Source of the DNA: an uncultured Pseudomonadales bacterium
GTDB lineage: Bacteria; Patescibacteriota; Microgenomatia; UBA1400; PJMF01
Length of the DNA: 64,000 bases
Assembly (NCBI GenBank): GCA_964406075.1
Contig: CAYOQI010000004.1
Location: 57,718-121,717, forward strand
Reading direction: 5' to 3'
A program made the position numbers and the translations under genes. Below the pieces are notes generated by a model. The model was given only the letters and a program-made list of their open reading frames with translations, ran no database searches and had not been told where the DNA came from. Of this stretch, positions 8,041 through 62,296 are shown one piece after another (position 1 is the first letter of the stretch; each line of letters starts with the position of its first letter).

Positions 8041-8817
8041 TTAATACTCAACCCGTCGAGCATACCGGAAGTAACGAACCGGAGAGTTCAAGAATTTACA
8101 GGTGTACAAAATAATATCGGCATCATAATCAGTGATTTCTTCACCTTCTTCACCAGCATAAATCTCATACTCATATCGACGTTTATCCCAGATCACTTCA
8201 AACGTATCCCCAACTTCTAATTTATTGAGGTTAAAAAAGGAATTTTGTCGACGATAGGCGTCTGTCCACTTGAGATATCCAAAGCGGTGAGCCAATAAAA
8301 TCATCGGACCAAGACTCTCTGGAGTAGCAAACTCTGTTTCTCGCCATACACCATGGCGCAAAGAATCTTCTGGCTCCACCGATTCTCCAATTTCAGTACG
8401 AACTCCAATCTTAGGAATGACTAACCAATTTCCATCTGGCAAATTTTCATCTCGAGGAGGGAGAACGATTTCAGAGTACAAAGTTCCCTCAGAATACAGT
8501 CCTCCCAGAGGTGATTCAGGTGTCTTGGCTTCAATTTGGACTCGTTCAACGGGTACAAATTTATAAAATGTATCTGGAAATAAGAATGCTGAAGCTACAA
8601 CGATTGACCCAAACAGTCCAATGGAAGAAATCAAGGAAATCAGATGTTTCCCAATTTTTCTTGGCTGTTTCTTAGGAAGAATAGTAGTTTGCACAGCAGA
8701 CCACATGAGCCACTCTTGGACTCTCTGTTCGCGTTGTCTGGCAAAATTGATCGTTGTATATAGCATATTAACTTGATTATTATAGGATACTTTTCCCGTT
8801 TTGTCCAGATACAACAC
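8041..8817 (-). CDS. sortase-family transpeptidase (membrane anchored)
   Basis: An N-terminal TM segment (LISLISSIGLFGSIVVASAFLF) is followed by the catalytic triad context LLAHRFG (His), IILYTCKF (TLxTC-like Cys) and a downstream Arg (RYFRYARR). The exact start is uncertain because there are several in-frame Met codons. Confidence 0.7.
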   Translation of the reverse strand: MLYLDKTGKVSYNNQVNMLYTTINFARQREQRVQEWLMWSAVQTTILPKKQPRKIGKHLISLISSIGLFGSIVVASAFLFPDTFYKFVPVERVQIEAKTPESPLGGLYSEGTLYSEIVLPPRDENLPDGNWLVIPKIGVRTEIGESVEPEDSLRHGVWRETEFATPESLGPMILLAHRFGYLKWTDAYRRQNSFFNLNKLEVGDTFEVIWDKRRYEYEIYAGEEGEEITDYDADIILYTCKFLNSPVRYFRYARRVEY

Positions 8818-8867
8818 ATATAAATAGCCTTGACTTTTTTATAAAGAGCAATGAGAATGATGTCTAT

Positions 8868-12564: not shown

Positions 12565-12576
12565 TTGATTTTAAAT

Positions 12577-13634: not shown

Positions 13635-14076
13635 AAGAATTTATACGAATCTGAGTGGTAAAACGGTTTGATTGTAGTTCAAGAGTTAAATCACTTCCCG
13701 GTGGATTTGTTTCTTGCGGGGACAATTCTAGTTGCCCCGTCAATTTCCGAAAAAAAACAAGGTCTGCGGTTGAATTTAATTGAATACCATATTGATAAGA
13801 AATTTGTTTATTTTCAGGCAAAAGCAAGTAGAATCCTGGAGAAACGAATGAGATACCATAACTCTCCCCGTTTTGAGCCACACGTGATTTTTGTTGTGCT
13901 TGCTTGAGCTCAGCCACGATTTTGTCGCGTTCCTTGGTCAATCGTTGGCGCTCTAAAGTTCCAAGTAAATATGGGGTGCTCGCACCAACCACCAACGCAA
14001 TAATTGTCATCACCACAATCAACTCCACTAAAGTGAAACCAGATGAATTCTGATGTTGGGCAGAACGAAAAAACAT
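13597..14076 (-). CDS. prepilin-type pseudopilin
   Basis: The N-terminus is NSSG|FTLVELIVVMTIIALVV, a canonical prepilin cleavage and methylation motif. Confidence 0.8.
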   Translation of the reverse strand: MFFRSAQHQNSSGFTLVELIVVMTIIALVVGASTPYLLGTLERQRLTKERDKIVAELKQAQQKSRVAQNGESYGISFVSPGFYLLLPENKQISYQYGIQLNSTADLVFFRKLTGQLELSPQETNPPGSDLTLELQSNRFTTQIRINSYGVLDTTVPQPL

Positions 14077-48700: not shown

Positions 48701-51700
48701 CCGATGGTCTGTTGATCAGAGCAACAACAGATGGTTCATTAGTAGATGCTATTGATGCGTCAGATGCAGAAATTACCAATGCCTTAAATATTGGGGCAAA
48801 CACAATCTTAGGAACAACTGGGGTTATCGATTTCACTAACTTTGATGTTGCAGCTACAGGTGCGCTCTCACTCTCTACCGCCGGAAATACCTCAGCCTCC
48901 TTCACCAGAACATCTGCTGGTCAATGGATGGCATTCAACGATGGCACCGATACTTGGGGTATTTACAACACCGCTGGTAGTCCTGAAGCATCGTTGACCG
49001 CAAATACTGGAGCCCTCGCAATGGATACAACCAATGGAACTCTCTATGTCAAAACTGATGATGGCGATAACACAGGGTGGGTAAACCTCGCTTCCGGTGC
49101 TTCTTCACCTTGGACTGATTCAGGGACGACTTCCTACTTAACCGATACTACAGATGAAGTAGTGATTGGTGGAGCTTCCCCACTTTCCAGTGCCAAATTT
49201 TCAATCGATGGAGATGCGGATCAAACTCAACTACTTGTCCAAGGCAATGCAACTCAAACCACAGACCTCGCAATCTTTGAGAACTCAGCGGGAGCAGATC
49301 AATTCAACTTCAGTAATACTGGAAACTTGATTGCAGCTGGAGACATTACTGCCACTGGTGGAACATTCAACGGTGCATCTGGAGAAAGTATTGACCTCGG
49401 AGTCGCAAGCTCAGATGTCCTCACCTTCACGACTGGAGCCTCAACTGAACTACTCCTTTCCACAACTAACTTAACAGCTGGAACAGCTGAAGGAAACTCA
49501 CTTGGATCTGCAACAGTAGAATGGGAACAACTCTTCCTTGGTGATAACAATGGAATTTCCTTTGGTCTCGATCAAGATTGGTCATTTGGTTATGATGAAG
49601 CTACAGATGATCGACTTGAATTAATCACAGCAGGAACGTCTGGAATGTTAATCCAATCCGCAACGGCTACTGGCAACGGATTAGCACTTACTTTTGATTC
49701 ACTCTCAACCGGTGAAGGACTCTACTTGTCTTCTACTTCAACAGCATTAACATCAGGTGGACATCTTGGTCTCTTCGAGTGGAATCCTGGAAGTGCCAGT
49801 TCGACCACCGCAGATCTGTTTAGTATCAATATTGGAAGTAACGCCACTGTGCTGGGAGATATCTTTAATGTTCAAGATAACGGCTCTGATCTTTTCTCCG
49901 TTGGAGAAGCTCAAATTACCTCTGCTCTTCCCCACTCATTTACCGCAGCCGGCGATGTATCAGTGGCCTACGATCTCCAATTTACCAATCAAACTGCTAG
50001 TTATTTGAAAACATACGGCCCACTTCAGATCGAAGCTGGTGAATCGTTTGAATCAAATAACTTAACGATAAAAACATATAACTCAGGTGACGTCGTCATT
50101 GATCTACCAGCCACCGGCCAAATGATCGTACAAGGTGCGTTCTCAATTGGAGATCAGCAAACACTTCCTGCCGGAACCACACCTTCCGTAGCCGGTGGTT
50201 CACACTACATTGGAAACGCGAATGGATTGATCACCAACTTCACCAGTGGAACTGCAGGTCAGATCCTAGTACTTGAGTTCGATGGAACTTCGACTGACCT
50301 CGACTGTAGCACTGCCGGACCGATTCGTTGTGGAAGTACAGATATCACTACCCAACAAGCAGCCGGTGACATCATTACCTTCATTTATGACGGAACAAAC
50401 TGGAACATGATCGAGTATGTAGCACTGGACGCAGACTCTACAGCTGGAGCTGACCTTGCCGAGTACTACCCCGCTTCTGAACACTTAGAGCCAGGTGACA
50501 TCGTCAGTATTGATTCAACTCAGCCAGTGATGGTGGAAAAATCTCACGAGTCTCATCGTCAACGAATAATGGGTATCGTATCAAGTGATCCAGGATTATT
50601 ACTTGGTGAAGAAGCGGATAATTCTTACCCCATCGCCTTGGCAGGGCGTGTGCATGTAAAAATGTCAGAATCATCTGAAGCTATTCAACCCGGCGACTTA
50701 GTTGGAGTTTCTCAGGAAACCGGAAAAGCCAAAAAAGTAAACTCTGGATATACAGTTGGCCGTGCTCTTGAATCATGGGATCCAAACTCTGGCGATCGAG
50801 ATGTGGTGGTATTTGTGAACTTATCATATATTCCCGTAGATTTAGCTTTAAATAATGATGGTCAAGTCAGCTCAAGCTACTCACTTATTACGACGGATTC
50901 TCTTGAGTACGCGATTCGCGATCTGAACAATGGACAGGATATTCAACAAACCTTAGTCTTGGCCGAATCATTGATTGGACGACTGGAAACCGGAAGTATA
51001 GTTACTCGAGAATTACAAGCTCAAAGTATCGAAACTGAAGACTTCCTCACGAATAACGCCACAGTATCTGGACAACTCAATGCCAACTCTGCAGAAATTA
51101 ACTCATTGAGATTTGAAACCGCCACAGTGGCGGGTCAACTTTTCTTATCAGATGGACGAAGTGTCGGCTCATTACTGGATGAAAATGATGCCTACTTAGC
51201 TTCCCTCTCAGCTCAGACCCAACAACTCGCACAATCATTTAGTGAGCAAACTGTCCCAGGCACATCCACAGCCTTTGATGAATTCCTCGCTCAACTGACA
51301 GGTACAGAAGACGCTTCTCTCTCAGCTGCCTTAGCAGCAATTCAGAATCAAGAAGATATTGAACTCGATGCAGAAAGCATGGTCCTGGCACCAGACGCAG
51401 TCTTTGTCAAAGAATACTTGAATGTCACCGGCTTCACTCAATTAACTACGGCCAGCATTTCTCAATCACTTACTGTGGGAGATGGTTTACTCTTAACTCA
51501 AGATACGATCGCCACAGCAGAGGAAACACTCTATATCCAACCAACTGCCGGATCACTGAACTTACTCGCCGGTTTGATGACACTCACTCCAGATGGAAAC
51601 GTCACGATTAACGGTGATCTGACTGTTACTGGAATCGCTTCCATTACTGATGGAGTGAAAACTAGTCAGCTCTCTCCAAATGACTTTACGCAAGATTTGA

Positions 51701-52173
51701 CAGTCAAACTTGCATCAGAATCAGCCTCAGTCTTGGGCACAACTGATAGCTCAGAGTTCCAGATTTTGAACGCCAGTAACTCAGCAGTGGCCAGTATCGA
51801 TGCATCTGGATCCGCCAAGTTCTCTAGCATTTCAACTGAAGGCTTAGTCTTGAAACAACCTCAGTCAGAGGCATCATCCTCTGCTCAACGACAAGCTGAA
51901 ATTGCTCGCAAACAAACAGCGGGACAATTAACTCTTGAGGCTGGTGAAGTCACAATGGAAATTGAGAATGATAATGTTGAAGACGACAGCTTGATTTATC
52001 TCACTGCAACTTCAGATACTCAAAACCAAGTCATGTATGTTGGAGAGAAAGAAACCTGTGCATTTGCTGGCCCAACCTGTCAAACCAGCTTCACCGTAAA
52101 AATTAATCAACCGATTGCTACAGACATTAAGTTCAACTTCTGGATTGTAAATGTCTCAAAACAACAGCCGTAA
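36772..52173 (+). CDS. giant (5133 aa) surface repeat protein: N-terminal MerR/excisionase-type HTH, single TM anchor, Thr/Gly/Asp/Asn-rich repetitive ectodomain
   Basis: An uninterrupted 15.4-kb ORF. Residues 10-57 (SIHEAAKFLKVSTKTLRRWEDRHILLPARTSGGHRRYDLNEIKAF) match the MerR/HTH_17 pattern. Residues ~161-185 (WVSVSIVLAFFFISAAAFSIQGFF) form the only TM segment. At least 7 copies of a TINSGGDLTIGSIGLNDVGSDNITSGASLVGVFDEFTNS..VQDVLDD.DAAIG module lie between ~38400 and 45980. Three copies of a GSTIFDLGTDTSATDFLIRN...ITYTLPPDDG..YVLT.DG.GVL.W module also occur. There is almost no Cys. Confidence 0.9.
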   Translation: MIPSDLPPLVSIHEAAKFLKVSTKTLRRWEDRHILLPARTSGGHRRYDLNEIKAFKKQKYSSGSVVHQTVLPLATVKPLESKVVDQTDILQVSKPLIIKPIDHFPLKTPKVTAYKPFPETITKVKKTFEFPSFQVRNNIPPQVEIPTEKITDFPIPTTPPSWVSVSIVLAFFFISAAAFSIQGFFKPLVAKHPVLSEIAYSLEKRLAINVFPKKEVMIVQANDSKVLGEHSSLDFLKFNINVESSFREFANFLSDVNVEGNATVSGILSVNSGSLQTTSETAQVFENASTLSIAANTGTTTVNNSLNVGGNLTVIGLINDIAGTLNLSGNTLTSTGDLVIDPGGGGVSIGDATPGIIDMTDGDFFVSGDVEIDGILYAPTANISGTASIGTVLVNSDSINDFTGTGLTVSDGALQTTIGTSVSSSEIENDTILEEDLKVSNDAVNGYALTYDNSTGGFTWTDIASSQVWIDGGSVYYQATTTDDVVIGGTSSLGKLSVDGDSDEIQLVVQGNGTQTSNIFVVEDSSGTDLFVVNNTGSITIASGQDLTIGSIGLNDVGTDNVTSGASLIGVFDEFTNSSATTLQDVLDDFDAAIGGGASKWAQDTGFVYLASTTDDIVVGGDTIANGSLYFDESAGSLYLGTNEALNGSLTLYSSGAGITDPTITADATGNANITTSATALVNILAGNLKVGNGAPTQTLNGEDAYVEGTLEVDGILYAGSATTALTVASGLIDADAIALTPTTEGLSGISSGSGLAVYSDTLSLLQGCGDGQVLKWNETNDSWECANDTGASFAVVNIENNDVAVGSNVDSIDFSTDFLVTASPSNEANVAIADDILNFTEFSDALTLDAATTITNSLAGNLTIDLTSTGDFVIADGGVAFFTFTDGGALTQAGSGQITLTGNVDATNGLDITGASLTVGGANATITTGGALTLASTITAATDETINGVDINAGTVSDVVNLTINSGGDLTIGSIGLNDVGSDNITSGASLVGVFDEFTNSSATTVQDVLDDLDAAIGAGASKWTDSGTVTYLTDTTDSITIGSSTELGKLAVDGDADEVQLLVQGNGTQTNALAIFEDSTGADQFSISNTGNVTLAGDLTISGGNITSATTFDSTATVTGTLTANGTLDANGIFTLGDNGETGAIDTSDWDISATGVLTGVSGITTDGGYTQSGATGNTFSGNVDATSGLDVTGASLTVGGANATITTGGALTLASTITANTDETVNGVDINAGTVSDVVNLTINSGGDLTIGSIGLNDIGSDNITSGASLVGVFDEFTNSDGLNVQDVLDDFDAAIGAGSSKWTDSGTVTYLTSTTDDLAVGGSTVLASMFGIDESAGNFYFGYDNSVSPTFNFEASDGDAGEFGFNTNDTFFFSNARVGVGTTNPSRLLHVSDSSGSPAIRVTGSASGSPFIEFEQSGNVRGVFGYDNTTSTLQLAYGANFSTTFLSLNSSGSMGLGTSAPDAALEINHATGDSLRLTYNDSNGSATSYTDFSLASDGDLTIDSAGGAINLGANDDLNITASTDLIFGGSTSLGESTGAADSGAFLTGIFDEFDNSASSTVQDVIDDIDAAIGNRTYTADNYVTDGQTLTASINALDIALASVSGGAYTGWSIDVDDDGADPIASGATLNVDAGSNVSLTYTAGTNTLLIAATDTNTTYTAGNDLDLTGTVFSLETTLDFVDTINLAGTGTLNGLDAVDATGENTIEALIFDTDAESITGVWTVADSTNFRIGTGGDLTFAHDGSNSTITSTTGDLLIDNTNATGSTIFDLGTDTSATDFLIRNDSGTQLLSLNGAGALQLGSNGQDGQFILYNELGVTDYTNTINPSGSQSQNITYTLPPDDGGADNYVLTTDGNGVLQWESVTGAGGGSGDLTDIIAGNYIDVQNAGGPSPTVDFDPTELEGVTWGASSGASEPFTWTYDVTNSGTDPSITFADNAITLTAATLTASGDLTIQGGDATLGMAGTDGSLTFYNELGATDRSVIFNVSGSQSEDIVYTLPPDNGAADNYVLTTDGSGVLQWESVSGAGGGTGDVTDIVAGNYIDVQNAGGPSPTVDFDPTELESVTWGAQTGASFTWTFNASSGTDTSIAFADGSISPTLAATGLFNVLTGNLKVGNGTPGLSLDGEDAYIEGTFEVDGASQFDGALTTNGTLTANGQFTLGDNGDTGAINTSDWDISTTGSLTGISGIANDGSYTQTGSSANAFTGVTTFNTDVDFTFADTENIAITNTVTGTNGLDLISAIITNQTSSGTQRGIVISNANDAANASTESLIFLDNAETTASTLTDAILITSSGADGGIVDAIDVSAGNITNALNVGGNNIIGTTAVINFDNFDIDGSGNLVTAGTLTAATNETINGVDINAGTVSDVVNLTINSGGDLTIGSIGLNDVGSDNITSGASLVGMFDEFDNSASTTVQDVIDDIDAAIGNRTYTADNYVTDGQSLTASIDALDVALAAVSGGAYTGWDLDGDSGTAETIANGNTVNILGGTNGIDTVVSATDTLTINLDTTEIGTSTFGSGSGFTWTFDAGATDPTLAFASNAITIGGAATLNFGGTLDLGTNTLSDGNFNGNWAFNSGNLSGIGTIGASGAITAATDETINGVDINAGTVSDVVNLTINSGGDLTIGSIGLNDIGSDNITSGASLVGVFDEFTNSDGLNVQDVLDDFDAAIGAGSSKWTDSGTVTYLTSTTDDLAVGGSTVLASMFGIDESAGNFYFGYDNSVSPTFNFEASDGDAGEFGFNTSDSFFFSNALVGIGTASPSEQLEVGGNIELTAAVPRLAFDNTNGDNDWYIQASATGFQFRNSSDNVNYLLINQTGLVSIGGDDSPDYLLELYDATATPTFALSDDDVTHGLTTLAQTDVFSHLTSLSTTAGGAELTTISDTDAQALSIRGVIGSTDPTDTTPAVKLVGAKSNGTTGMADLGAAETVFQVANNDDASALTILGNGNVGIGDTTPAALLTVGTSDALQIDASGNVVTTGTVTAATNETINGVDISAGTVSDVVNLTINSGGDLTIGSIGLNDVGSDNITSGASLVGVFDEFTNSSATTVQDVLDDLDAAIGAGASKWTDGGAITYLTATTDDLAVGASNTLTAPFSVDVSANLVRIGTGSTANAQLDMYASDGDTGSLIYNTSDQFNFTGGDVLIGQALTVTGTTTANGAFDANGQFDLGDGGDAGTISATTLDIDATGALQINSSGGAIGIGNDAVAQAINIGTGAAARTITMGNNTGASALQLTSGTGDITLTSTDDILFTPTDDMLATFAAGSAFTIDAATTDTTVTGGVLALDVDAGNAAVIGIDLDFSQSSGATTGTDAIGQNIAVSANDADGDVFGLSIRSNATANAGVGSYEALIRLINAEDTASAVTDAILIDSTSGVDGDIIDAIDVSDANITNALNVGANNIIGTSAVINFSSFDVDASGNTIIGGTLDVTGISTLVGNLNANGGLDVDNAFVVADGGVLTTSQTANFDGTADFDGAADFSAGVTNSAGEFLVSGGNLQLNDNINLTVGTGDDLTIVHNGTNTLLTSVTGDLIFDNTLVTGSTIFDLGTDTSATDFLIRNNSGTQLLSMNGAGAFQLGSNGQDGQFILYNELGGTDYTNTINPSGSQSQNITYTLPPDDGGLNYVLTSDGSGVLTWQSVGGIGAGGDLTDIVAGNYIDVQNATGPSPTIDFDPTELETVTWGAQAGSSFAWTFNASSGTDPVMTFADNAITLTAATTTLSGDLAINGGNVTTATTFDSTLTATGTLTANGALDANGQFDLGDGGDAGTISATTLDIDATGALQINSSGGAIGIGNDAVAQAINIGTGAAARTITVGNNTGASALQLTSGTGDINLNSADDIFLSPSDDLTAFITAVGQFTIDAATIDSQNTLGAFRLDIDSSTSGTIGFLTNFRAIDDDAADILYANRTDVTIQDDTTASDTVYGNYISLIQNDTTPATTYGLAVVAEDAGTSPVSTGILIENLQATDIDLTDGLLIRATTDGSLVDAIDASDAEITNALNIGANTILGTTGVIDFTNFDVAATGALSLSTAGNTSASFTRTSAGQWMAFNDGTDTWGIYNTAGSPEASLTANTGALAMDTTNGTLYVKTDDGDNTGWVNLASGASSPWTDSGTTSYLTDTTDEVVIGGASPLSSAKFSIDGDADQTQLLVQGNATQTTDLAIFENSAGADQFNFSNTGNLIAAGDITATGGTFNGASGESIDLGVASSDVLTFTTGASTELLLSTTNLTAGTAEGNSLGSATVEWEQLFLGDNNGISFGLDQDWSFGYDEATDDRLELITAGTSGMLIQSATATGNGLALTFDSLSTGEGLYLSSTSTALTSGGHLGLFEWNPGSASSTTADLFSINIGSNATVLGDIFNVQDNGSDLFSVGEAQITSALPHSFTAAGDVSVAYDLQFTNQTASYLKTYGPLQIEAGESFESNNLTIKTYNSGDVVIDLPATGQMIVQGAFSIGDQQTLPAGTTPSVAGGSHYIGNANGLITNFTSGTAGQILVLEFDGTSTDLDCSTAGPIRCGSTDITTQQAAGDIITFIYDGTNWNMIEYVALDADSTAGADLAEYYPASEHLEPGDIVSIDSTQPVMVEKSHESHRQRIMGIVSSDPGLLLGEEADNSYPIALAGRVHVKMSESSEAIQPGDLVGVSQETGKAKKVNSGYTVGRALESWDPNSGDRDVVVFVNLSYIPVDLALNNDGQVSSSYSLITTDSLEYAIRDLNNGQDIQQTLVLAESLIGRLETGSIVTRELQAQSIETEDFLTNNATVSGQLNANSAEINSLRFETATVAGQLFLSDGRSVGSLLDENDAYLASLSAQTQQLAQSFSEQTVPGTSTAFDEFLAQLTGTEDASLSAALAAIQNQEDIELDAESMVLAPDAVFVKEYLNVTGFTQLTTASISQSLTVGDGLLLTQDTIATAEETLYIQPTAGSLNLLAGLMTLTPDGNVTINGDLTVTGIASITDGVKTSQLSPNDFTQDLTVKLASESASVLGTTDSSEFQILNASNSAVASIDASGSAKFSSISTEGLVLKQPQSEASSSAQRQAEIARKQTAGQLTLEAGEVTMEIENDNVEDDSLIYLTATSDTQNQVMYVGEKETCAFAGPTCQTSFTVKINQPIATDIKFNFWIVNVSKQQP
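40462..40862 (+). repeat. 401-bp perfect intragenic repeat, copy A
   Basis: By eye it is identical base for base to 44590..44990 (offset 4128 bp). Identity stops abruptly at both ends. Confidence 0.85.
44590..44990 (+). repeat. 401-bp perfect intragenic repeat, copy B
   Basis: See copy A. The flanking sequence is only about 70-85% similar. Confidence 0.85.
46276..46442 (+). repeat. 167-bp perfect intragenic repeat, copy A
   Basis: Identical to 48049..48215 (offset 1773 bp). The following ~100 nt are about 85% similar. Confidence 0.85.
48049..48215 (+). repeat. 167-bp perfect intragenic repeat, copy B
   Basis: See copy A. Confidence 0.85.
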
Positions 52174-52447: not shown

Positions 52448-55400
52448 ATGTTCTCATTTCGTCGTCGCCCACTATCTTCCGTATCTAGAAAACGCTCACC
52501 GAAGGTAGTTGTTCTCTTATTGTTGTTAACACTGCTTTTACTCCCAATCGTCTACAGCCTCATTACACGTCCCAATCAAGGAACAGCTGCACCACTCAAC
52601 GCGACTGAAGATTCTACTTCCATCACAATTACATCCCCAGGAAAATATCGAGCAGTGATCCAAAAAGGCGATACCACAGATTACATTCTTTTTTATGATC
52701 TAGCTGAAGATGCCGGTAACCCTGATCCGACACATGAGTTTAAGGGCCCGTGTGTTTTGGAAACAAACACGTATTGCCTGCGAGATGATAGTAACCGAAT
52801 GACAACACTGATTGAGGTGACAGACACCGTTGTGAAAGTTCGGGTCATGGGCAGATTCAATAACGAAGCCAGTACTGATTATCTTGATGATGATACGCCA
52901 CTCTATTTCCCTGAAGTGATCGAAAACTATGCGTTCACTCGTGATGGAGTAAGTGTCATGAACCGTACGGACTTCGCTACGGGAACTGGTGTCACTTTTG
53001 ATGCAGATTCTGGGCACAACGGATATGACTGGCTCGGTGTGTACTCAGATGTCACCGATGGTGCATACGATGACACCGCCAATAATAACTATGGTGATGG
53101 TGCGACTGAGGCTCAAATATCCGCCGATGGAGAGTTTTCTAATACCAATAGTTACTTTCACATGCCTGGAACTGGGAGCTCTACCTACCAAGACGCCTTT
53201 GTCGGTATACATCGAGATGGTTGGTATAGCGATTTAAACTCCAGTGGTGTCCATGAGTGGAATTGGGATGAGGCTGAATCAGGTACGCAGGATTTAATCA
53301 CAGCACAAGAGCAAAACTACAACTCCAGCAGACGTCATGAGGCCAAATGGTATTTCCTCCTGAAAAGTGAATCAGATCTTGATACTGAAGCCGAACGAGA
53401 AGCTTTGAACAATGAAATGATCAATGCCGATATACTCTCCTACACCGTAGGTGAAACGTCCTACGAGATGCCGGTGACTGCAACTGCAATCAATTTTGAT
53501 GCGGATACTGATTACGTCAACGTGCCTGACAACTCAGCCTATGATTTTGGTGATACAGCAGACTACTCTGTTGAAGCGTGGATGATGAGAAATGGAAACC
53601 CTATTTCAGGTGATAACCCCATTGTCTCAAAACGGCTCTGTTGTGGTGCTTCCGGCTGGGAATTCCAGATTCGACTTTCAAGCGCACGAATGCGTTTGCA
53701 AATGACTGATGGAACAGATACGTATGATCTTGAAGGCAGTACGGTTCTTAGTGACCAAACTTGGTACCACGTTGCAGCCGTGTTTGATCAAGACAACGCC
53801 AGCAATAGCATTATCTATATAAACGGTGTTGCAGAAACGATGACTCGGACAGGGACTATTGGAAATTTGGGCAGTATGGCAAGTACCGCTGGACTCGGTT
53901 TTGGTGTTGGTGAGCCTGGTATTGGGAACTATAACAGTTTTTCCGGCCGAATAGCTGAAGTACGAATCTGGGATGATGTGCGAACAGCAGCTGAAATTCG
54001 CGAAAACATGTTTCGACAAATTGACCCCGCATCAGCAAACCTAGTGGGATACTGGAAACTGGATGAAGGGACCGGAACTGCAGTACATGATTCCAGTGCA
54101 ACCGGTGCGAATGGAACAATTGTTGGAGGTGCCACTTGGGACTCAGTCAATGAACGTAAGGCCGATCACTTCAATGAATTTGAATTTGCCCACACACTTC
54201 AGTCAACAGCCCAAAATGCGCAGTACGATATTGATGCTGGAGCATCAAATGTCTCAACAACAGCCAATGGTGCTATTTCCGATAACGCGACCACAGTCAC
54301 AGTTACCTCCACGACAGGCTTTGCCTCTTCGGGAATTGCCTACATTGATGGAGATAAGTTTAGCTACACTGGAACCACTGCCACGACATTTACCGGTGTT
54401 CCCTCTTCTGGTGAACACAGCGTAATTGCTCATGTCACAGGAAGTGTGGTCGCTCAGTTCACGCGAAGTAACACCAACTTTAAGGTTGGTGGCTACCAAT
54501 CCACTGAGAAACCTGCGCAAATTACCAAAGAAGGTATCTCGCAAAAAGAAGGGGTCGATTTCTCAGCTTCTGTAAAGCCAGTAACGGATGGCTACTTTGC
54601 CCAAGACTTAAGTTTTTATGCAGACTTTGCAAGTACGACAGTTGACGTTGGTTCAAACTTGACCAATAGCGGATGTACCCTGACACAAGGTGGCAATGAC
54701 TACACTTTAGGATTTATCACCGTATGTGATGGTGGCTCCGATGACATGACATTTACCTCAACAGGCAATATCGACTATGCCAAAGGAGCCCTTGAGTTTT
54801 CGATCGCGGCATTCAGTACCAGTGCTGACAGTACCGAACGTACATACTTTCGCATAACCGATGGCACCGATGAGTTTCGATTTCGCAAAACATCAGGCAA
54901 TACTTTAGAGTTTTTAATTGATGAAGGCGCTTCCACCTATACAGAATCTATCTCAAGTGCAAACTACAGTTGGGGGTTTTTGGACACTGTTCACATTCGA
55001 CTGGAATGGGATGACAGTGCCTCTACCACAGAAGATGAAATGAAAATTTACATCAATGGAAGATTACCGACCTCCACAGATGCGAGTGGTTTTACCGGTG
55101 CAAATGTGTCTCCTGGTACCACCTTCCGTTTAGGAAATAGTGCAGACTCTGGAGGTACGCACTGTAACTGCTTGATCGATGAATTCAAAATCTATGACTT
55201 CAACGGCAGTGGTGATCAAGTTGGACTGGCCAAGGTTGGAGCCGGTGGTGGAGGTGGTGATTATTTCTATAACCCAAATAATAATCTGACGCTTTCTTTT
55301 GCTCCGGTGGACGCTGGTAATCGAGGTGAGTATCTCTACTTAGGCGCTGATGCCAAAGTCAATGGATATAACTTTGATCTTGCTACCAATGGTGTTGGAA

Positions 55401-58400
55401 GTTCCTTAAATCTTGATTGGGAATACTGGAATGGTGTCGCTTGGACAAGCTTAGAATCCATTGTTGGCTTTACAGATACGACAAGTAACTTAACCCAAAG
55501 TGGCACCGTGTATTGGACTGCTCCACCGACCAACTGGAGACCATATGCGATGAACAGCAAAAATGAGTTCTACTATATTCGAGCTTCCTTAAATGCAGCA
55601 TCTGGTACGTACACCACAAGTCCTGTCGAAAATAGAATCACCACAACAACTCTCTACATTCGAAGCGACACGACACTTAATCTTGAAGATCAAACGTTTG
55701 TCATTCCCACCCAATTCCAACCATCTGTTTTCTGGAAAATGGATGAAGGTCAAGGAACAGCAATCAATGATAGTACTGGGAATAAAAACGACGGAACACG
55801 CCTCAATGCGGTGTGGCAAACGGAAGATATGTGTGTTTCAGGAAAGTGTCTCTATTTTGATGGGAGTGGCAGTCCAAGAGACTATCTGTATAGATTAAAT
55901 GATGACAGTTTCAACTTTACAGCCAGCGAAAGTTTCTCAATAAGTATTTGGATAAAACGTGAACCAATATCTACAGACCCGAATGTGATTCTTGCAAAAC
56001 ATAACTCAAGCGGTGGTGGATATAAAATTCGAATGGAAAATGATGGTGATATCAGTTGTGGAATTGATGATGACAGTACGTACACCCCTGATGCTGAGGC
56101 AATTAGTACGCTCGCCACCTATGATGATAATCAATGGCACCACATCGAGTGTGTCAAAGATGGTACTTCAAGTTTGTCGCTCTATATCGATGGAATACTT
56201 ATTAATACCAACTCCTCTATCTCTGGAGTAGGAAGTCTTGTAAACACGCAACCGTTTTACCTTGGAAATGGCGGTGACGGTTTATCAGATGCATTTAAAG
56301 GCTTCATGGATGAATTCAAAATGTATCCCTATGCTCGAACTGCAGATGAAGTAAAAGCCGACGCTATTGCAGGCGCTGGAAATCGTGGCTCCTCCGCTGT
56401 ACTCGGAGCACAGGACACCGCATTTCTAAATGACGGCTTAGCCGGTTATTGGTCACTCGATGAAGGAACCGCTAACTCTTGTAGTGGAGGAACAAACGAT
56501 AGCTGTGATAAATCTGGCAACAATAATGATGGTGCTTGGCAGGATAATGCCACAAGTACGCGTGGTAAGTTTAGTCGTGGCACAATTTATGATGGAACCA
56601 ATGACAATGTCACCATAACTGATCCAACGTCTGGGACATTAGATTTTGGGACAGGTGATTTTACCGTGTCAACCTGGGTGAACTTCAGTGCTATCGCGAA
56701 TGGAAGTACCCTGCTTGGGAAAAACTTCACTGGTTCGGGAGCCGGGTATGGTATGCGTATACAAACCACTTCCCCGACGATATGGGTGGGAGATGGTGCT
56801 ACTACGGCTGAGCTTGCCCACACGGCAGTACTTTCAAACTCTGCCTGGTATCATGTTGTTGGTGTCAGGAAAAACGGCACATTATATATATACGTGAATG
56901 GTGTACAAGGCTCATCCACTGCATCTTTTACTGGGAATGTGAGTACCACAGGAAATCTGTATTTGGGGGCCAGAGGAACGGGAGCAACAGCAAATATGGC
57001 TGGAAGTTTAGATGAGGTGAGAATATATAATCGGGCCCTTGCTCCTGCAGAAATAACTACTTTATATAACTGGGCACCCGGACCGGTAGGATATTGGAAG
57101 CTGGATGAAAATACGGGTATCAGTGCATATGATTCATCAGGTAATGCTAGCACTGGCACTCTCACAAATAGTCCAACCTGGACACCAGGAAAATTTGGTT
57201 CTGGAGTCAATTTAGGAGGAAATAGTTCCAATCATTATGTGAGCATTGCCGATAATGATCTCTACTCTCCTTCACTCTTTGCAGGAGCTACTATCCAGGC
57301 CTGGTTCAATCAAGACACCGCAACTGCAGCCCGAGACTGGATTGTGGCGAAGGGAAACACAAGTAACTTCGAGTGGGGTCTCGCCGTAAGCAATGGTGTT
57401 CTCTATTGTGAGATCTGGGATTCATCTGGTAGTAGTCAAGCCCAAGTCGTTGCAGGCGTGGTATCCACTGGAGCATGGCACTTCGCCTCTTGCACCATGG
57501 ATAATACCAATGGTGTTTATCTCTATCTTGATGGAGTGTTGCAGGGATCTTCCCCAGGACTTACTGGTGGAATGAGTAATACTACCTCTGCTGTACAAAT
57601 TGGTAATCGTGCCGATGGTGGAGACAATAATTTTGACGGAACTATCGATGAAGTAAAAATCTACAACTATGTTCGTACTCCCGGCCAGATGCTTGAAGAC
57701 ATGAATGGTACTCACCCGGTTGGAGGCTCCCCGGTGGGTTCTCAAATACTTAATTGGAAATTTGATGAGGGCAATGGAACCACAGCAAATAACGAAATAA
57801 CTGGTGGAACAAACGGCACCCTTACCAGTATGGCCACTGCCCCATCGACTTCTTCTTCAGGGTGGACTGCCTCAGGAAAATTTAATAAAGCCTTAGTTTT
57901 TGATGGGACAGACGACAAAGTCGTCATTGACACTGCAAGCGACGCAAATGTGGACTTCAATGCAAGTGAACAGTTTTCTTTGTCGGCCTGGGTGTACTCC
58001 ACCACTGTTCCCACTACTGCAACCGACGAGGATTTAATTATAGGAAAATGGGACGAAACAAGTTCTCAACGTGCATACAGAGTGTTCCTCGAAAATGATG
58101 ATACTGATTCAACAGGTCACATCCGAGTTGAAGTCATGGATGAATCCACCGGAGGAAATGAAATTCTCTCAGCAGTTACGAGTAATGACACTATCTCACA
58201 AAACACTTGGTATCACGTCACCATGACATTTAATGGAACGATCACTGGAGCTGCAAATAGTCTGAAGGTATATCTAGATGGCAAGCAACTTGGTACCAAC
58301 GCAGCGAATGCAAGTTTCGTAGGTATTGATGACGTCACCTCTGATTTCACGGTAGGTGATTATGATGCCACAGACAGTGACGGAGATCTTGATGGCTTTA

Positions 58401-59968
58401 CTGGTCGAATAGATACTGTGCAAGTGTATGGTGCAGAGCTTACAGCAGATCAAGTAAAAATTGTCATGAATGCGAACTCCGGTGTCAACTTCTCTACGGG
58501 TAGAGTTGAAACTGATCAGTCTATTGATGGAACACCATCAAACATAGCTGGATATTGGAATCTGAACGAGAACACAGGGACAACAGTGAATGATACATCT
58601 GGTAATGCAAACGCATTAACGATGAGTGGTGTGTCTGCTAGCTCTTGGGTACCTGCCAAATACGGATCAGGCTTGTACTTCGATGGAGCTGATGATTATC
58701 TCTCTATTGCTGATGATGCTGATTTTGATTTTGCTGCAGTTGATAGTTTTACTATTTCTGCCTGGGCAAAAAACTCTGGCTCACTTGCTTCAAGTCAACA
58801 TATTTTCGTCAAAGGTGACACCACTGATGGGGGCTGGAAACTCTACTTAAATACTGCCGGAAATTACTGTGTCCATTTTGCAGACAACATTAATAATGCC
58901 CCGACTGACTCAGCGTGTTCTTCATCAGGAGGATATGACTACAATGACAATCAATGGCATCACATTACTGCAGTGAAAGTAGCTAACTCTGAACTGCATC
59001 TCTATATTGATGGTGTGCTGGTAGCCTCTGATACAGCATTTTCATACTCCGGAACACTTGCAAACACTGGATCCTTATTGGTGGGCATAGGACAAAGTAC
59101 TACTACAGAAGAATTCACAGGTATCTTGGATGAATTAAAAATTTCGAGAACACCACTTACTGCCTCCCAAGTAGCTTTTGAATACAATCGTGGCCGTTCA
59201 CTAGCCTGGTGGAAATTTGATGACTGTACTGGAACTACTGCATACAATGCTGCCCAAAACGGTAACGGCGATGCGATTGGAAGTAATGGCACCATTACCA
59301 TAGGTGCAACCGGTTCCAACACATCCGCAGGTTCTTGTAATGTCGTGAACACCGCCACAGCTTGGTACAACGGGTTGGTCGGTAAATTTAATAACTCCAT
59401 TGATTTCGATGGCACTGATGATTATGTTTCTGTCGCAGATACAGAGATACTTCGACCAGAGGCAGGTAGCTGGTCCGTATCCTTGTGGGCAAACCCTGCA
59501 AATATCAATCAAAATTCTCCACTTATTACCAAGCGCCTAAACAGTGGGAATTTTGAACAATGGTCACTCTATATCTGTGGAAACATTGGATGTAGTACCG
59601 ATGGACAGCAAGTGCGCTTTGCTTTTGTTGAGGCCGATGGAACTACTGATCGCAAAGCACTCAGCACTCTAGACGTTGTTGATGGCAACTGGCATCATTA
59701 CGTGGGCATAGCCAGTAAAGACGATGACTCCATTATTTTATACAGGGACACAATAGAGCTAACTTCAACTTCTACAACAAATGGTTCCTGGCCTACTGTC
59801 AATAATACTGATCCTGTCCGCATCGCAAACGACAATGGAAGTGTTTACTATAATGGTCAAATTGATGATGTGCAGGTTTTTAACTATACTTTGTCTCAGG
59901 AACAAGTTAAAAAATTGTATAATGAAGGCTCTAGTGCTCGGTTTGGACCAGAAAGTGGAACTCCTTAA
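52448..59968 (+). CDS. giant (2506 aa) membrane-anchored protein with about 9 tandem LamG/concanavalin-A-like lectin modules
   Basis: An N-terminal signal anchor (KVVVLLLLLTLLLLPIVYSLI) is followed by a repeated module signature: (G)YWKLDEGTGT..DSSGN.N.GT ... F(D/T)G.DDYV ... F(T/S)(I/V)SAW(V/I) ... W(Y/H)H(V/I) ... L.LY(I/V)DG ... G.(I/L)DE(V/F)(R/K)IY. Seven W-x-(L/F/M)-(D/N)-E-type module starts can be counted, plus two or more degenerate ones. Confidence 0.9.
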   Translation: MFSFRRRPLSSVSRKRSPKVVVLLLLLTLLLLPIVYSLITRPNQGTAAPLNATEDSTSITITSPGKYRAVIQKGDTTDYILFYDLAEDAGNPDPTHEFKGPCVLETNTYCLRDDSNRMTTLIEVTDTVVKVRVMGRFNNEASTDYLDDDTPLYFPEVIENYAFTRDGVSVMNRTDFATGTGVTFDADSGHNGYDWLGVYSDVTDGAYDDTANNNYGDGATEAQISADGEFSNTNSYFHMPGTGSSTYQDAFVGIHRDGWYSDLNSSGVHEWNWDEAESGTQDLITAQEQNYNSSRRHEAKWYFLLKSESDLDTEAEREALNNEMINADILSYTVGETSYEMPVTATAINFDADTDYVNVPDNSAYDFGDTADYSVEAWMMRNGNPISGDNPIVSKRLCCGASGWEFQIRLSSARMRLQMTDGTDTYDLEGSTVLSDQTWYHVAAVFDQDNASNSIIYINGVAETMTRTGTIGNLGSMASTAGLGFGVGEPGIGNYNSFSGRIAEVRIWDDVRTAAEIRENMFRQIDPASANLVGYWKLDEGTGTAVHDSSATGANGTIVGGATWDSVNERKADHFNEFEFAHTLQSTAQNAQYDIDAGASNVSTTANGAISDNATTVTVTSTTGFASSGIAYIDGDKFSYTGTTATTFTGVPSSGEHSVIAHVTGSVVAQFTRSNTNFKVGGYQSTEKPAQITKEGISQKEGVDFSASVKPVTDGYFAQDLSFYADFASTTVDVGSNLTNSGCTLTQGGNDYTLGFITVCDGGSDDMTFTSTGNIDYAKGALEFSIAAFSTSADSTERTYFRITDGTDEFRFRKTSGNTLEFLIDEGASTYTESISSANYSWGFLDTVHIRLEWDDSASTTEDEMKIYINGRLPTSTDASGFTGANVSPGTTFRLGNSADSGGTHCNCLIDEFKIYDFNGSGDQVGLAKVGAGGGGGDYFYNPNNNLTLSFAPVDAGNRGEYLYLGADAKVNGYNFDLATNGVGSSLNLDWEYWNGVAWTSLESIVGFTDTTSNLTQSGTVYWTAPPTNWRPYAMNSKNEFYYIRASLNAASGTYTTSPVENRITTTTLYIRSDTTLNLEDQTFVIPTQFQPSVFWKMDEGQGTAINDSTGNKNDGTRLNAVWQTEDMCVSGKCLYFDGSGSPRDYLYRLNDDSFNFTASESFSISIWIKREPISTDPNVILAKHNSSGGGYKIRMENDGDISCGIDDDSTYTPDAEAISTLATYDDNQWHHIECVKDGTSSLSLYIDGILINTNSSISGVGSLVNTQPFYLGNGGDGLSDAFKGFMDEFKMYPYARTADEVKADAIAGAGNRGSSAVLGAQDTAFLNDGLAGYWSLDEGTANSCSGGTNDSCDKSGNNNDGAWQDNATSTRGKFSRGTIYDGTNDNVTITDPTSGTLDFGTGDFTVSTWVNFSAIANGSTLLGKNFTGSGAGYGMRIQTTSPTIWVGDGATTAELAHTAVLSNSAWYHVVGVRKNGTLYIYVNGVQGSSTASFTGNVSTTGNLYLGARGTGATANMAGSLDEVRIYNRALAPAEITTLYNWAPGPVGYWKLDENTGISAYDSSGNASTGTLTNSPTWTPGKFGSGVNLGGNSSNHYVSIADNDLYSPSLFAGATIQAWFNQDTATAARDWIVAKGNTSNFEWGLAVSNGVLYCEIWDSSGSSQAQVVAGVVSTGAWHFASCTMDNTNGVYLYLDGVLQGSSPGLTGGMSNTTSAVQIGNRADGGDNNFDGTIDEVKIYNYVRTPGQMLEDMNGTHPVGGSPVGSQILNWKFDEGNGTTANNEITGGTNGTLTSMATAPSTSSSGWTASGKFNKALVFDGTDDKVVIDTASDANVDFNASEQFSLSAWVYSTTVPTTATDEDLIIGKWDETSSQRAYRVFLENDDTDSTGHIRVEVMDESTGGNEILSAVTSNDTISQNTWYHVTMTFNGTITGAANSLKVYLDGKQLGTNAANASFVGIDDVTSDFTVGDYDATDSDGDLDGFTGRIDTVQVYGAELTADQVKIVMNANSGVNFSTGRVETDQSIDGTPSNIAGYWNLNENTGTTVNDTSGNANALTMSGVSASSWVPAKYGSGLYFDGADDYLSIADDADFDFAAVDSFTISAWAKNSGSLASSQHIFVKGDTTDGGWKLYLNTAGNYCVHFADNINNAPTDSACSSSGGYDYNDNQWHHITAVKVANSELHLYIDGVLVASDTAFSYSGTLANTGSLLVGIGQSTTTEEFTGILDELKISRTPLTASQVAFEYNRGRSLAWWKFDDCTGTTAYNAAQNGNGDAIGSNGTITIGATGSNTSAGSCNVVNTATAWYNGLVGKFNNSIDFDGTDDYVSVADTEILRPEAGSWSVSLWANPANINQNSPLITKRLNSGNFEQWSLYICGNIGCSTDGQQVRFAFVEADGTTDRKALSTLDVVDGNWHHYVGIASKDDDSIILYRDTIELTSTSTTNGSWPTVNNTDPVRIANDNGSVYYNGQIDDVQVFNYTLSQEQVKKLYNEGSSARFGPESGTP

Positions 59969-60142: not shown

Positions 60143-62296
60143 ATGGCACAACCGTCCACTCGCCCACAATCACTTGATCTCATCATTCCCAAGCTCGTTG
60201 AATATATGCTGTATGGAGCAGTGATTTTAACTCCATTATTCTTTTTACCGTTTCTGCAAAATATTTTTGATACATCAAAGTATGCCCTGCTCTTGATAGT
60301 CACATTGATTTCACTTGGACTTTGGACGGTAAATACGTTGAGACATAAAGTATTACGATTTACTTTTCATCCTTTTACCTTTCCATTAATTCTTTTATCG
60401 TTCAGTATTTTAGTTTCTTCAGTATTGTCACCGGTGTATTTTCTTGAAGATTTTGCGGGAATTTTTGGACTCATCTTTTTCTTAAACTTACTTATTCTGT
60501 TTGGTTCAAGTTTAGTAAAAGTCAAACAAAGTAAAACATTTATTGATATGGCAAGTATTGGGGCCATTTTATTGAGCATCGTTTCTCTTCTCCAGCTCGC
60601 TGGAGTTGGACCAACAGTTGCATTAAATTCTTTACTGACCTTACAGTTTCCAAATACTTTTGCATTCTCTCCCGCTGGATCTCCATTGATTGGTTTATCT
60701 GCATTAGTAACCATCTTGGTACCAATGGTTGTGATGTTGGTTACTAATAAAGCATGGAAAGAAAAAATTCCGACAATGGTAGCTACTGCTATCGTCGCGA
60801 TCGGAGTACTTCTTCATGTCGGAGTAATGGTTGCAAAGCCTGAATTTCGACCTAACCTGCTTCCTTTATCAGCAAACTGGTTAATCTCCGTAGAAATTTT
60901 GAAGAACCTCCCCAGAGCCCTTTTTGGAGTTGGTCCTCAAAATTTTATGGATGCGTATGCTCAATTTCGACCAGTGAGCTTAAACAGTAATGACACATGG
61001 CAACTACTCTATCAATCAGGATCAAACACTCCATTCTTTATTTGGGTCAGTGTCGGGACTGTGGGATTGATTGCTTGGATCTTACTTTTTATTCAAAGTT
61101 TACTATTGCTCAAATCATCTCCAATATCCGCTCGCCCAGTTGGAATCATGGTCGTCACTGCTTTTATTATCGAGTTATTTATTCCGTTTAATATTGTCCT
61201 TGTCGCTCTACAAGCACTGGGTATGTTGTTCTGGATCGCGACACTCAGAGCTGAGCATCATCCCAAAAGTTCAGATATTGTCGTTAGCTTAAATGCCTTA
61301 AAAGTTACTCGCCCTGAAGACTACCCAACAGAAAAGAGAATGGGATCTTTGACATACATCACCACATTTTTTGTTCTGGTTGTAATCGCAGTCAGTACGT
61401 ACGGTCTCTTTAGAGTTATGGCCGGAGAGTTTTTCTTCTTCCAATCACTCCAAGCTGCTCAAGCTAGCGATGTCAAAAAACTGTATGAGATTCAACAAAA
61501 AGCCATTCAATACAATCCATATCGAGATATTTATCGCAGAACCTATGCCCAAACCAACTTTGCAGTGGCATTAAATTTGGCTCAAAAAGAAGGTATTACC
61601 GAAGAAGAAAAAGCCACACTTTCTAAATTACTTCAGCAAGCAATTCGAGAGGCTCGTATTGCCGCAAGTTTGAACCCTGCTCGCTCAGTCAATTGGAGAG
61701 TTTTAGGTGATATTTATCGAGGATTAATTGGTTCAACCAAGAATGCCGAACAGTGGTCAGTCGCATCATATGTCCAAGCCGTTCAAACTCATCCCAATGA
61801 CCCAACGTTGCGTGTTGATCTAGGTGGAATTTTCTTGAGAACCAAAAACCCTGATCAAGCAGCTCAATTGTTCCAACAAGCAGCACAGCTCAAACCAGAT
61901 TACGCCAATGCCTACTACAACTGGGCCCAAGCATTAATTTTACTCAATCGACCAGATACAGCTGTCTTAGCGTATGAGAAAGTTCTCACCTTACTTAAAC
62001 CTGATTCAGCCGATTACGTCAAAACTCAAAAGGAGTTAGTGGATTTGAGAGAAAAAGCCAAGGCCGCTGCAGCTGCTCAACCAAAACCACCTGCTACTCA
62101 AACCGCAACTGGATCAGCTACGACACCCACACCTCAACCAACACCAAGTAATACTCAACCTGAGGAAGCTGCCTTACCTGAGTCAGTCAAGCCATCACCA
62201 GGTTTGTTAGATCAAGAACCTGAAAATGTCCAGCTCGATCCTAATCAAGCCAGTCAATCAGCCACTCCCCAACCCAATCCAACTGCTGCTCCGTAA
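60143..62296 (+). CDS. Wzy_C (O-antigen ligase-like) polytopic membrane protein fused to C-terminal TPR repeats and a Pro/Thr/Gln-rich tail
   Basis: 717 aa. About 12 helices occupy the first ~440 aa, including FGVGPQNFMDAY (compare FGVGFNHF in the 17436 paralogue). TPR-like repeats follow (YRRTYAQTNFAVAL, WRVLGDIYRG, AQLFQQAAQLKPDYANAYYNWAQALI). The tail is AAQPKPPATQTATGSATTPTPQPTPSNTQPEE. Confidence 0.7.
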   Translation: MAQPSTRPQSLDLIIPKLVEYMLYGAVILTPLFFLPFLQNIFDTSKYALLLIVTLISLGLWTVNTLRHKVLRFTFHPFTFPLILLSFSILVSSVLSPVYFLEDFAGIFGLIFFLNLLILFGSSLVKVKQSKTFIDMASIGAILLSIVSLLQLAGVGPTVALNSLLTLQFPNTFAFSPAGSPLIGLSALVTILVPMVVMLVTNKAWKEKIPTMVATAIVAIGVLLHVGVMVAKPEFRPNLLPLSANWLISVEILKNLPRALFGVGPQNFMDAYAQFRPVSLNSNDTWQLLYQSGSNTPFFIWVSVGTVGLIAWILLFIQSLLLLKSSPISARPVGIMVVTAFIIELFIPFNIVLVALQALGMLFWIATLRAEHHPKSSDIVVSLNALKVTRPEDYPTEKRMGSLTYITTFFVLVVIAVSTYGLFRVMAGEFFFFQSLQAAQASDVKKLYEIQQKAIQYNPYRDIYRRTYAQTNFAVALNLAQKEGITEEEKATLSKLLQQAIREARIAASLNPARSVNWRVLGDIYRGLIGSTKNAEQWSVASYVQAVQTHPNDPTLRVDLGGIFLRTKNPDQAAQLFQQAAQLKPDYANAYYNWAQALILLNRPDTAVLAYEKVLTLLKPDSADYVKTQKELVDLREKAKAAAAAQPKPPATQTATGSATTPTPQPTPSNTQPEEAALPESVKPSPGLLDQEPENVQLDPNQASQSATPQPNPTAAP

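Follow-up and report, generated by a model that had tools for sequence, protein, structure and literature searches.

What does a very large protein made mainly of LamG repeats do for a small bacterium, and is it built from those repeats alone? The question is raised by an ATG-initiated open reading frame (ORF) at 52448..59968 (+ strand) in a 64,000-nucleotide (nt) stretch of DNA, hereafter the window, from an uncultured Patescibacteria-type bacterium (contig CAYOQI010000004.1, assembly GCA_964406075.1). The ORF encodes 2,506 amino acids (aa), and its start cannot be extended upstream because an in-frame TAG lies 12 nt 5' of the ATG. A first-pass annotation had described the product as a membrane-anchored array of about nine LamG/ConA-like modules behind an N-terminal region of some 330 aa that it could not assign; its ORF coordinates, its protein length, and the 274-nt gap between the stop codon of the preceding 5,133-aa ORF and the LamG gene all proved exact. 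With somewhat more confidence than doubt, we lean towards reading the LamG protein, from its sequence, as an exported multivalent glycan-binding adhesin of a bacterium of the Patescibacteria (candidate phyla radiation, CPR) type.

LamG modules and export signal

The whole protein matches the Pfam family Laminin_G_3 (PF13385) with E=6.4e-159 and 523.5 bits, in 8 stretches. When it was cut into ten segments and each was scanned against Pfam alone, eight passed the PF13385 gathering cut-off of 27.6 bits (scores in Table 1), and the remaining two (aa 525-760 and 915-1095) had no Pfam match. A hidden Markov model (HMM) trained on six units of this same protein recovers the identical set of eight modules. 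The LamG/ConA-like nature of the repeats thus agrees with the Pfam parsing, every module belonging to PF13385, and the tandem arrangement holds as well. In contrast, the count of about nine falls to eight, and two modules of other kinds, at aa 567-757 and aa 923-1091, break the array up.

The sequence hallmarks that had been quoted for the repeat are all present at the expected periodicity. Starts of the W-K-L-D-E-G-x-G type occur at aa 535, 1096, 1549, 1770, and 2036; FDGxDD at aa 1381, 1818, 2078, and 2320; F(S/T)xSxW at aa 1163, 1405, 1843, and 2101; W(H/Y)H at aa 439, 1230, 1467, 1921, 2170, and 2415; and (I/L)D(E/D/T)(V/F/L)(K/R/Q)(I/V) at aa 910, 1521, 1733, 1988, 2227, and 2472. The Pfam LamG core opens at the 'FDG.DDY' strand, and in units 3-8 a W-K-L-D-E-G-x-G leader of 50-70 aa stands in front of it. 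Pairwise identity among the units is only 16-36%, which is consistent with diversified module specificities, and DNA-level repeats are confined to motif-coding stretches of 31-38 nt. Judged by their sequences, the units are old duplicates, and these same two observations led us to reject an origin by recent tandem duplication or as a contingency locus.

In an AlphaFold2 (AF2) model of the N-terminal cassette described below, LamG1 and LamG2 reach a pLDDT of ~70-89. The top Foldseek matches of these two models are neurexin LNS, laminin LG, and PAPP-A LamG domains and pentraxins (E=1e-12 to 1e-7), with trans-sialidase lectin domains also among the matches. An assignment of the repeats to some unrelated fold, which would have undone the first-pass description, was therefore not what we found: all eight are PF13385, and the two modelled modules have the LG/LNS fold. 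A PDB sequence search with the whole protein gave only weak matches to PAPP-A LamG.

A hydropathy scan of the whole protein finds a single hydrophobic segment, aa 16-42 (mean Kyte-Doolittle value 2.9), and none elsewhere. In front of it stands a basic tail, MFSFRRRPLSSVSRKRSPK, and ~8-10 residues past the helix, ahead of the first folded domain, comes a small-residue x-A-A-x motif, which reads GTAAP here (…SLITRPNQGTAAPLN…). An A-A pair stands at the matching place in eight co-linear homologues (…TQAAT…, …VKAAT…, …SKAAG…, …AKAAS…, …TLAAK…), and this conserved motif could be a putative signal-peptidase I site. The helix may serve as a signal anchor or else as a Sec signal peptide that is cleaved off, so that the membrane anchoring proposed at first keeps its one N-terminal hydrophobic helix and loses its certainty. 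A Tat signal, for which the RRR of the N-terminal tail might be taken, was rejected: the RRR stands 12 residues away from the hydrophobic core, and homologues do not share it.

From residue 48 on, the chain amounts to ~263 kDa with a pI of ~4.2 and is thus strongly acidic. No LPXTG or other sorting signal was found at the C-terminus (a regular-expression search gives only an internal VPSSG at aa 651), which ends in ...ARFGPESGTP with no hydrophobic tail. Lacking LPXTG, the protein is ruled out as a sortase substrate, though the window does contain a sortase gene. It is likewise ruled out as a type IV pilin or modular minor pilin, having no match to PF07963 (N_methyl) and an N-terminus (MFSFRRRPLSSVSRKRSPKVVVLLLLL...) free of the G/FTLxE motif. 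No catalytic Pfam domain was detected anywhere in the protein, whether it was scanned whole or as sub-segments.

Table 1. Modules of the LamG protein and further features of the window (positions in the window; TM, transmembrane).
Feature	Position	Strand	Details
N-terminal export signal	52448..52573	+	Basic tail aa 1-15, hydrophobic helix aa 16-42, then ...GTAAP
N-domain (aa 50-345)	52595..53482	+	Beta-supersandwich with C-terminal helix (AF2 model); unannotated family
LamG module 1 (core aa 352-517)	53501..53998	+	PF13385 81 bits, E=1.3e-22; self-HMM match 317-514
WKLDEG-type leader strand (aa 533-566)	54044..54145	+	Parted from LamG2 core by insert; YWKLDEGTG at aa 535; self-HMM 533-623 = HMM positions 3-95
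Insert module (aa 567-757)	54146..54718	+	190 aa; no known family; kept in all cassette-bearing homologues
LamG module 2 (core aa 762-922)	54731..55213	+	PF13385 38.2 bits, E=2e-9, profile positions 2-147 of 151
Mid beta-domain (aa 923-1091)	55214..55720	+	WEYWNGxxW motif; related to phage tail/eCIS (extracellular contractile injection system) baseplate domain
LamG unit 3, leader and core (aa 1092-1303)	55721..56356	+	PF13385 97.5 bits; self-HMM E=4e-88
LamG unit 4 (aa 1332-1536)	56441..57055	+	PF13385 96.6 bits; self-HMM E=2.5e-68
LamG unit 5 (aa 1546-1746)	57083..57685	+	PF13385 89.2 bits; self-HMM E=1e-77
LamG unit 6 (aa 1766-2004)	57743..58459	+	PF13385 70.5 bits; self-HMM E=2e-72
LamG unit 7 (aa 2033-2243)	58544..59176	+	PF13385 86 bits; self-HMM E=9e-84
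LamG unit 8 (aa 2251-2488)	59198..59911	+	PF13385 85.1 bits; self-HMM E=3e-73; protein ends 18 aa further
Upstream giant gene (5,133 aa)	36772..52173	+	MerR-type helix-turn-helix (HTH) aa 10-59 (Pfam E=2e-9); one TM helix aa 160-185
Downstream gene (717 aa)	60143..62296	+	~9-10 TM helices (TM scan); C-terminal tetratricopeptide repeats (TPR; Pfam)
Sortase	8041..8817	-	Envelope/DNA-transfer cluster 8041-14076
VirD4/TrwB-like coupling ATPase	9304-11454	+	Cluster 8041-14076
von Willebrand factor A (vWA)-domain protein	11455-12564	-	Cluster 8041-14076
Small ORF, one of three after vWA gene	13597-14076	-	Prepilin N-methylation motif; cluster 8041-14076

The N-terminal cassette

The first ~1,050 aa hold a fixed order of N-domain, LamG1, WKLDEG leader, insert, LamG2, and mid domain, and six LamG units follow. 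Of the 109 homologues retrieved, ~15 (P0002-P0013, P0020, and P0023) contain this whole cassette, in one or two copies. The N-domain, the insert, and the mid domain have no Pfam match even at E<=10, and a 36-sequence profile of the N-domain found no relative among PDB sequences. The N-domain is also rare, with 46 cluster representatives among 1.84 billion proteins, mostly inside very large proteins. Both the conserved cassette and the N-domain family appear to be undescribed so far.

The AF2 model of the N-domain (pLDDT 90.7, pTM 0.89) is all-beta apart from one C-terminal helix and comes closest to the supersandwich domains of polysaccharide lyases and glycosidases, with 4-12% identity to all matches. 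We are confident in the N-domain as a predicted galactose-mutarotase-like supersandwich, which is an assignment of fold and not of family membership. The N-terminal region left open by the first-pass annotation thus stays unassigned by Pfam and is extended to this supersandwich by its predicted fold. Since the fold is typical of carbohydrate-active enzymes (CAZymes), a carbohydrate-directed role fits. Among CAZyme supersandwich domains, those of PL26, PL4, GH38, GH174, GH2 (domain 5), and OpgG/D resemble the N-domain in fold, without family membership at the sequence level.

This likeness raises the possibility that the protein is a targeted glycan-degrading enzyme, in which the supersandwich would be the catalytic lyase or hydrolase and the LamG units carbohydrate-binding modules on a substrate such as a host cell wall or capsule. 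The residues invariant across the 36 members of the N-domain family include D84, R117, E123, Y236, R317, and D328 (protein numbering), charged and aromatic side chains that could form a site; G135, F163, T164, and G218 are invariant too. Nevertheless, the very low identity to every enzyme match and the lack of any Pfam or PDB sequence relationship between the N-domain and an enzyme family argue the other way. In many of the matches (GH38, GH2, and PL8-type lyases), moreover, the supersandwich is an accessory and not the catalytic domain. We therefore regard a targeted degradative enzyme as quite improbable.

The other two unassigned modules are less well predicted. For the insert, a phmmer search retrieved 14 homologue copies (E=1e-31 to 1e-51), and its AF2 model attains moderate confidence only in model residues ~557-625 (aa ~601-669), parts of it having a pLDDT <50. 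The mid domain, with the motif W-E-Y-W-N-G-x-x-W ... Y-Y-I-R, is also modelled poorly (pLDDT <50). Its profile A3, made from 25 sequences, matches chain M ('orf18') of PDB entry 9efk with E=4.5e-12 and, more weakly, the eCIS baseplate protein Afp11 (6rao_I) with E=0.007. Entry 9efk is the portal-tail complex of Legionella phage LME-1, in whose description a hexameric nozzle is reported (PMC12407071); chain M, 818 aa long, is present in six copies, and orf18 is probably that nozzle. What the LamG protein has in common with orf18 and Afp11 is one beta-domain of ~110 residues, the remainder being unrelated.

Relatives of the mid domain are widespread. There are 160 in IMG/VR viral contigs, and a scan of genome contigs found it in Gammaproteobacteria, Myxococcota, Ignavibacteria, Cyanobacteria, Planctomycetota, and others; loci L013-L087 and L092-L171 carry the domain. 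The full cassette, in contrast, occurs on none of the viral contigs, where the cassette scan returned essentially only the mid domain. A search of the viral fold database BFVD with the N-domain returned only supersandwich proteins of chloroviruses and giant viruses and no phage tail proteins, and so lends no support to a phage origin of the N-domain.

An identical protein is recorded at NCBI on a contig of 135 kb. Full-length homologues are 33-37% identical to the LamG protein and are metagenomic or CPR proteins; those with names come from Patescibacteria, CPR3, and Roizmanbacteria and are labelled 'LamG domain-containing' or 'DUF2341' proteins. The genome contig scan places cassette-bearing loci in a Woesebacteria metagenome-assembled genome as well, and again in the same CPR3 one. 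Cassette or mid-domain proteins were also seen on two contigs binned as Bathyarchaeia and Nanoarchaeia (L009, DATKWK010000007.1, and L020, DATBWR010000005.1), which are either mis-binned CPR contigs or a case of inter-domain sharing among ultrasmall symbionts.

Three of the cassette-bearing homologues (P0011, P0020, and P0023; locus L008, contig MZGJ01000002.1 of CPR3 bacterium 4484_211) have a different architecture, in which an HTH domain and a multi-pass glycosyltransferase family 2 (GT2) synthase of the Glyco_trans_2_3 type are followed by a long extracellular region ending in the cassette. P0011 and P0023 start with HTH domains, as the protein encoded upstream of the LamG gene does. The C-termini of all three consist of 'VVPE(Y/Q/N)LW', a hydrophobic stretch, and an RRRKK-type tail, resembling sorting signals of the PEP-CTERM/archaeosortase type.

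Neighbouring genes and chromosomal context

The LamG gene lies between two genes for predicted membrane proteins (Table 1). Past its TM helix, the upstream giant protein continues for ~4,950 aa with a high content of T, G, S, A, D, and N and very little K or R (13% Thr, 12% Gly, ~1% Lys, ~1% Arg), a layout that puts a membrane-tethered DNA-binding domain on a predicted giant surface fibre. The downstream TPR protein has no direct match to PF04932 (Wzy_C) even at E<=10. Its full-length homologues P0182, P0179, and P0168 do pass this model, with 56.8, 51.6, and 33.3 bits against a cut-off of 31.7, and four more score 25-29 bits; it is by this transitive homology that we call the protein O-antigen-ligase-like.

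Both neighbours recur beside LamG homologues. A homologue of the C-terminal ~1,000 aa of the giant protein is encoded upstream of a cassette-LamG gene in L001, in L003/L004 (with three small genes between), and in L007/L010, that is, in 3 further independent contexts. A TPR/Wzy_C-like gene follows the LamG gene in L007/L010 and also in the closest relative, L088, which retains the LamG-TPR-Obg order; with L020, a partial trio holding a giant-C-terminus-like gene and a TPR-membrane gene, this makes 2-3 contexts. The exceptions are as clear. In L002 and L005/L006, the LamG homologue stands behind a gene for single-stranded DNA-binding protein (SSB), with no giant or TPR gene, and in L089-L091 the TPR gene, lying between the leucyl-tRNA synthetase (LeuRS) block and Obg, directly adjoins neither a LamG nor a giant gene, a LamG/DUF2341 gene or giant homologue being found 3-4 kb away. 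The linkage of the LamG gene to its two neighbours is thus recurrent but loose, and neither is universal. For the first-pass proposal that the LamG and giant proteins act together, this means that co-location stands in L001, L003/L004, and L007/L010 and fails in L002, L005/L006, and, as far as direct adjacency goes, L089-L091.

The comparison with L089-L091 also bears on gene content. Those loci share with the window (14532-63991) the order NDK, M16 peptidase, (arginyl-tRNA synthetase, ArgRS), metallo-beta-lactamase-fold protein, ComEC, ComEA, LeuRS, small ORF, TPR protein, and Obg. In the window, LeuRS and the TPR gene are ~25 kb further apart, the additional DNA consisting of the giant and LamG genes with the ATP synthase operon and iPGM, and the LeuRS-TPR interval is therefore a variable spot for giant surface genes. 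Between L088 and the window, the LamG arrays are ~31% identical and the adjacent TPR proteins 66%. An exposed surface protein is expected to evolve fast, and the contrast fits the LamG protein as such a protein. In L003 (3769-21456), three small 23S_rRNA_IVP (four-helix-bundle) genes are interspersed with two giant LamG genes, of which one carries a cassette and the other DUF2341, and L088 also has a 23S_rRNA_IVP/bAvd gene nearby; bAvd is an accessory protein of diversity-generating retroelements.

Several of these findings raise the possibility that the cassette and the LamG array handle the cell's own glycans, binding, guiding, or anchoring a self-made polysaccharide or glycoprotein layer, so that the protein would be an envelope-assembly or scaffold component and not a host-directed adhesin. 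The three homologues with a GT2 synthase carry it together with the cassette, an HTH domain, and a C-terminal TM/basic tail; the conserved downstream neighbour is O-antigen-ligase-like; and GT2, methyltransferase, RmlC-like, and RmlD-like genes come after the trio in L007. The window itself encodes GT2, GT1/GT4, a Wzx-type flippase, and a second Wzy_C protein. However, its LamG protein has no synthase fusion, copies elsewhere sit in mobile-element-like contexts with no nearby glycan genes, and the divergence between L088 and the window is more typical of a protein facing a variable partner than of housekeeping envelope assembly. On balance, we think such a self-directed role rather unlikely.

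A bolder reading makes the cassette the working head of a dedicated CPR apparatus that would capture, process, or extrude a specific polysaccharide at the symbiont-host interface, the LamG array being only a variable extension providing reach and specificity. It draws on the repeated ties of the cassette to glycan machinery, namely the GT2 fusions in three homologues and the neighbouring O-antigen-ligase-like/TPR and giant HTH-fibre genes, and we offer it tentatively, as a proposal with the chances against it.

The loci without giant or TPR genes bear on another alternative, that the LamG protein is cargo of a mobile element, as the receptor-binding or cell-contact protein of a prophage or an integrative/conjugative element. 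In L002 (1-27818) and L005 (1-25962), the cassette-LamG genes P0009 and P0008 stand directly behind SSB and are surrounded by an AEP primase, a large SNF2 helicase, RadC, and DUF6908; the L002 block additionally holds a Piwi-domain Argonaute (pAgo) and an N6/N4 DNA methyltransferase. These blocks resemble an integrative/conjugative element or prophage of CPR bacteria. The mid domain, moreover, has relatives in phage tail and eCIS baseplate proteins and turns up often in viral contigs, and some CPR/DPANN viruses carry LamG-type genes, as has been reported for CPR phages (PMC11310336).

The base composition of the window can be read in the same direction: GC is 0.43-0.46 over 38001-60000, which covers the two giant genes, versus 0.35-0.41 (about 0.39) in most of the window, and the GC skew switches sign within that interval. 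The shift is probably due to the abundance of G, A, T, and D in the two giant proteins, together with the + strand orientation of their genes. Against mobile cargo stand the housekeeping flanks in the window (the upstream side with the ATP synthase operon and iPGM, the downstream side with tRNAs and Obg), the LamG-TPR-Obg order retained in L088, the confinement of viral matches to the mid domain, and the lack of any integrase, capsid, portal, or terminase gene nearby in the window. Because of these flanks and the order kept in L088, we consider it very improbable that the window copy is mobile cargo.

The remainder of the window is a Patescibacteria-type chromosome, with an F-type ATP synthase operon, iPGM, LeuRS, ArgRS, ComEC/ComEA, Obg, NDK, and four tRNAs. 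Its envelope and DNA-transfer genes comprise, beside the glycan genes named above, a sortase, a VirD4-like ATPase, a vWA protein, and pilin-like genes.

Proposed function and known relatives

We return to the glycan-binding adhesin that we favor. The reasons for it are the export signal, a module content confined to beta-sandwich domains of binding type, the CAZyme-type supersandwich, the diversification of the modules, the fast divergence, and the phylum context. On this proposal, the protein would be exported through Sec and then either held by its single N-terminal helix or released by cleavage of the signal peptide. Outside the cell it would form a long string of independently folded beta-sandwich modules (one supersandwich, eight LamG, one insert, and one phage-tail/baseplate-type beta-domain), which may bind polysaccharides or glycoproteins on the surface or matrix of another cell multivalently and would attach the small symbiont to its host or substrate. 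Different modules may have different specificities, with avidity arising from their number. The protein would share its envelope context with the giant fibre-like protein and the O-antigen-ligase-like/TPR membrane protein, and the latter may glycosylate or assemble Ser/Thr-rich surface proteins, namely the giant and the LamG protein.

Several points weigh against this proposal. Proteins and steroids are ligands of LamG domains too, and some of these domains are parts of enzymes or spacers that bind nothing; mutarotases, GH174, and OpgG/D-type glucanases are families in which the supersandwich is catalytic. The GT2-synthase fusions, the glycan genes of L007, and the Wzy_C-like neighbour fit the handling of the cell's own polysaccharide equally. 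The symbiotic lifestyle of the organism is assumed from its phylum-level affinity, and the linkage to the two neighbours has the exceptions given above.

With regard to known systems, the nearest are the giant 'LamG domain-containing' and 'DUF2341' proteins of Patescibacteria, which share with the window protein their phylum-level source, tandem Laminin_G_3 arrays behind an N-terminal export signal, and lengths of 1,400-3,600 aa. Their homology to it is full-length or partial (E=0 to 1e-100), and their presumed role is alike (PMC11310336). Unlike the DUF2341-type members, the window protein has no DUF2341 (PF10102; Pfam E<=0.01), which many homologues do have, and starts with the cassette. More generally, LamG/concanavalin surface proteins of CPR and DPANN are presumed attachment factors (PMC11310336; bioRxiv 10.1101/2025.02.25.640227; PMC9563170); He et al. 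2021 (PMC7906910) makes no statement on LamG or lectins. The SPEARE giants of Nanohaloarchaeota and the LamG proteins of DPANN are similarly very large exported multi-domain proteins of ultrasmall symbionts, with adhesion-type domains, and are thought to mediate host contact (PMC9563170). In contrast to SPEARE proteins, the window protein is bacterial and has no serine-protease or restriction-endonuclease domain (Pfam E<=0.01, sub-segments included).

Two further comparisons extend only to the domain. Eukaryotic LG/LNS arrays (laminin alpha LG1-5, neurexin-1alpha LNS1-6, Gas6, and PAPP-A LamG) have the same jelly-roll module fold, supply the best Foldseek and PDB matches, and share the principle of several LG modules per chain for multivalent binding of glycans or proteins. 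Only fold and Pfam clan are common to both, however, with 7-19% identity, and the window protein has no EGF spacers and a bacterial context. The model for TafC, the LamG-type subunit of haloarchaeal Tat-fimbriae (NCBIfam NF052521; PMC11821415), matches the LamG units in 7 stretches with 254 bits summed. As this lies below its 410-bit cut-off, we rejected membership in the TafC family: the two share a domain only, the window protein exceeds TafC in length ~7-fold, and its neighbourhood contains no other Taf genes.

Giant surface proteins with many LamG modules are thus an already known kind in CPR, and the gene is of a type expected for the phylum. Attachment to other cells is the presumed way of life of CPR bacteria, and hardly any of the molecules that make the contact have been characterised; the LamG protein is a well-delimited candidate for one. 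Every one of its ~2,500 residues now falls within an assigned module, the formerly unassignable N-terminus has a confident predicted fold, and the protein belongs to a recurrent trio with a giant HTH-fibre protein and an O-antigen-ligase-like/TPR protein. Its rare cassette family provides a handle for the comparative genomics of host attachment.

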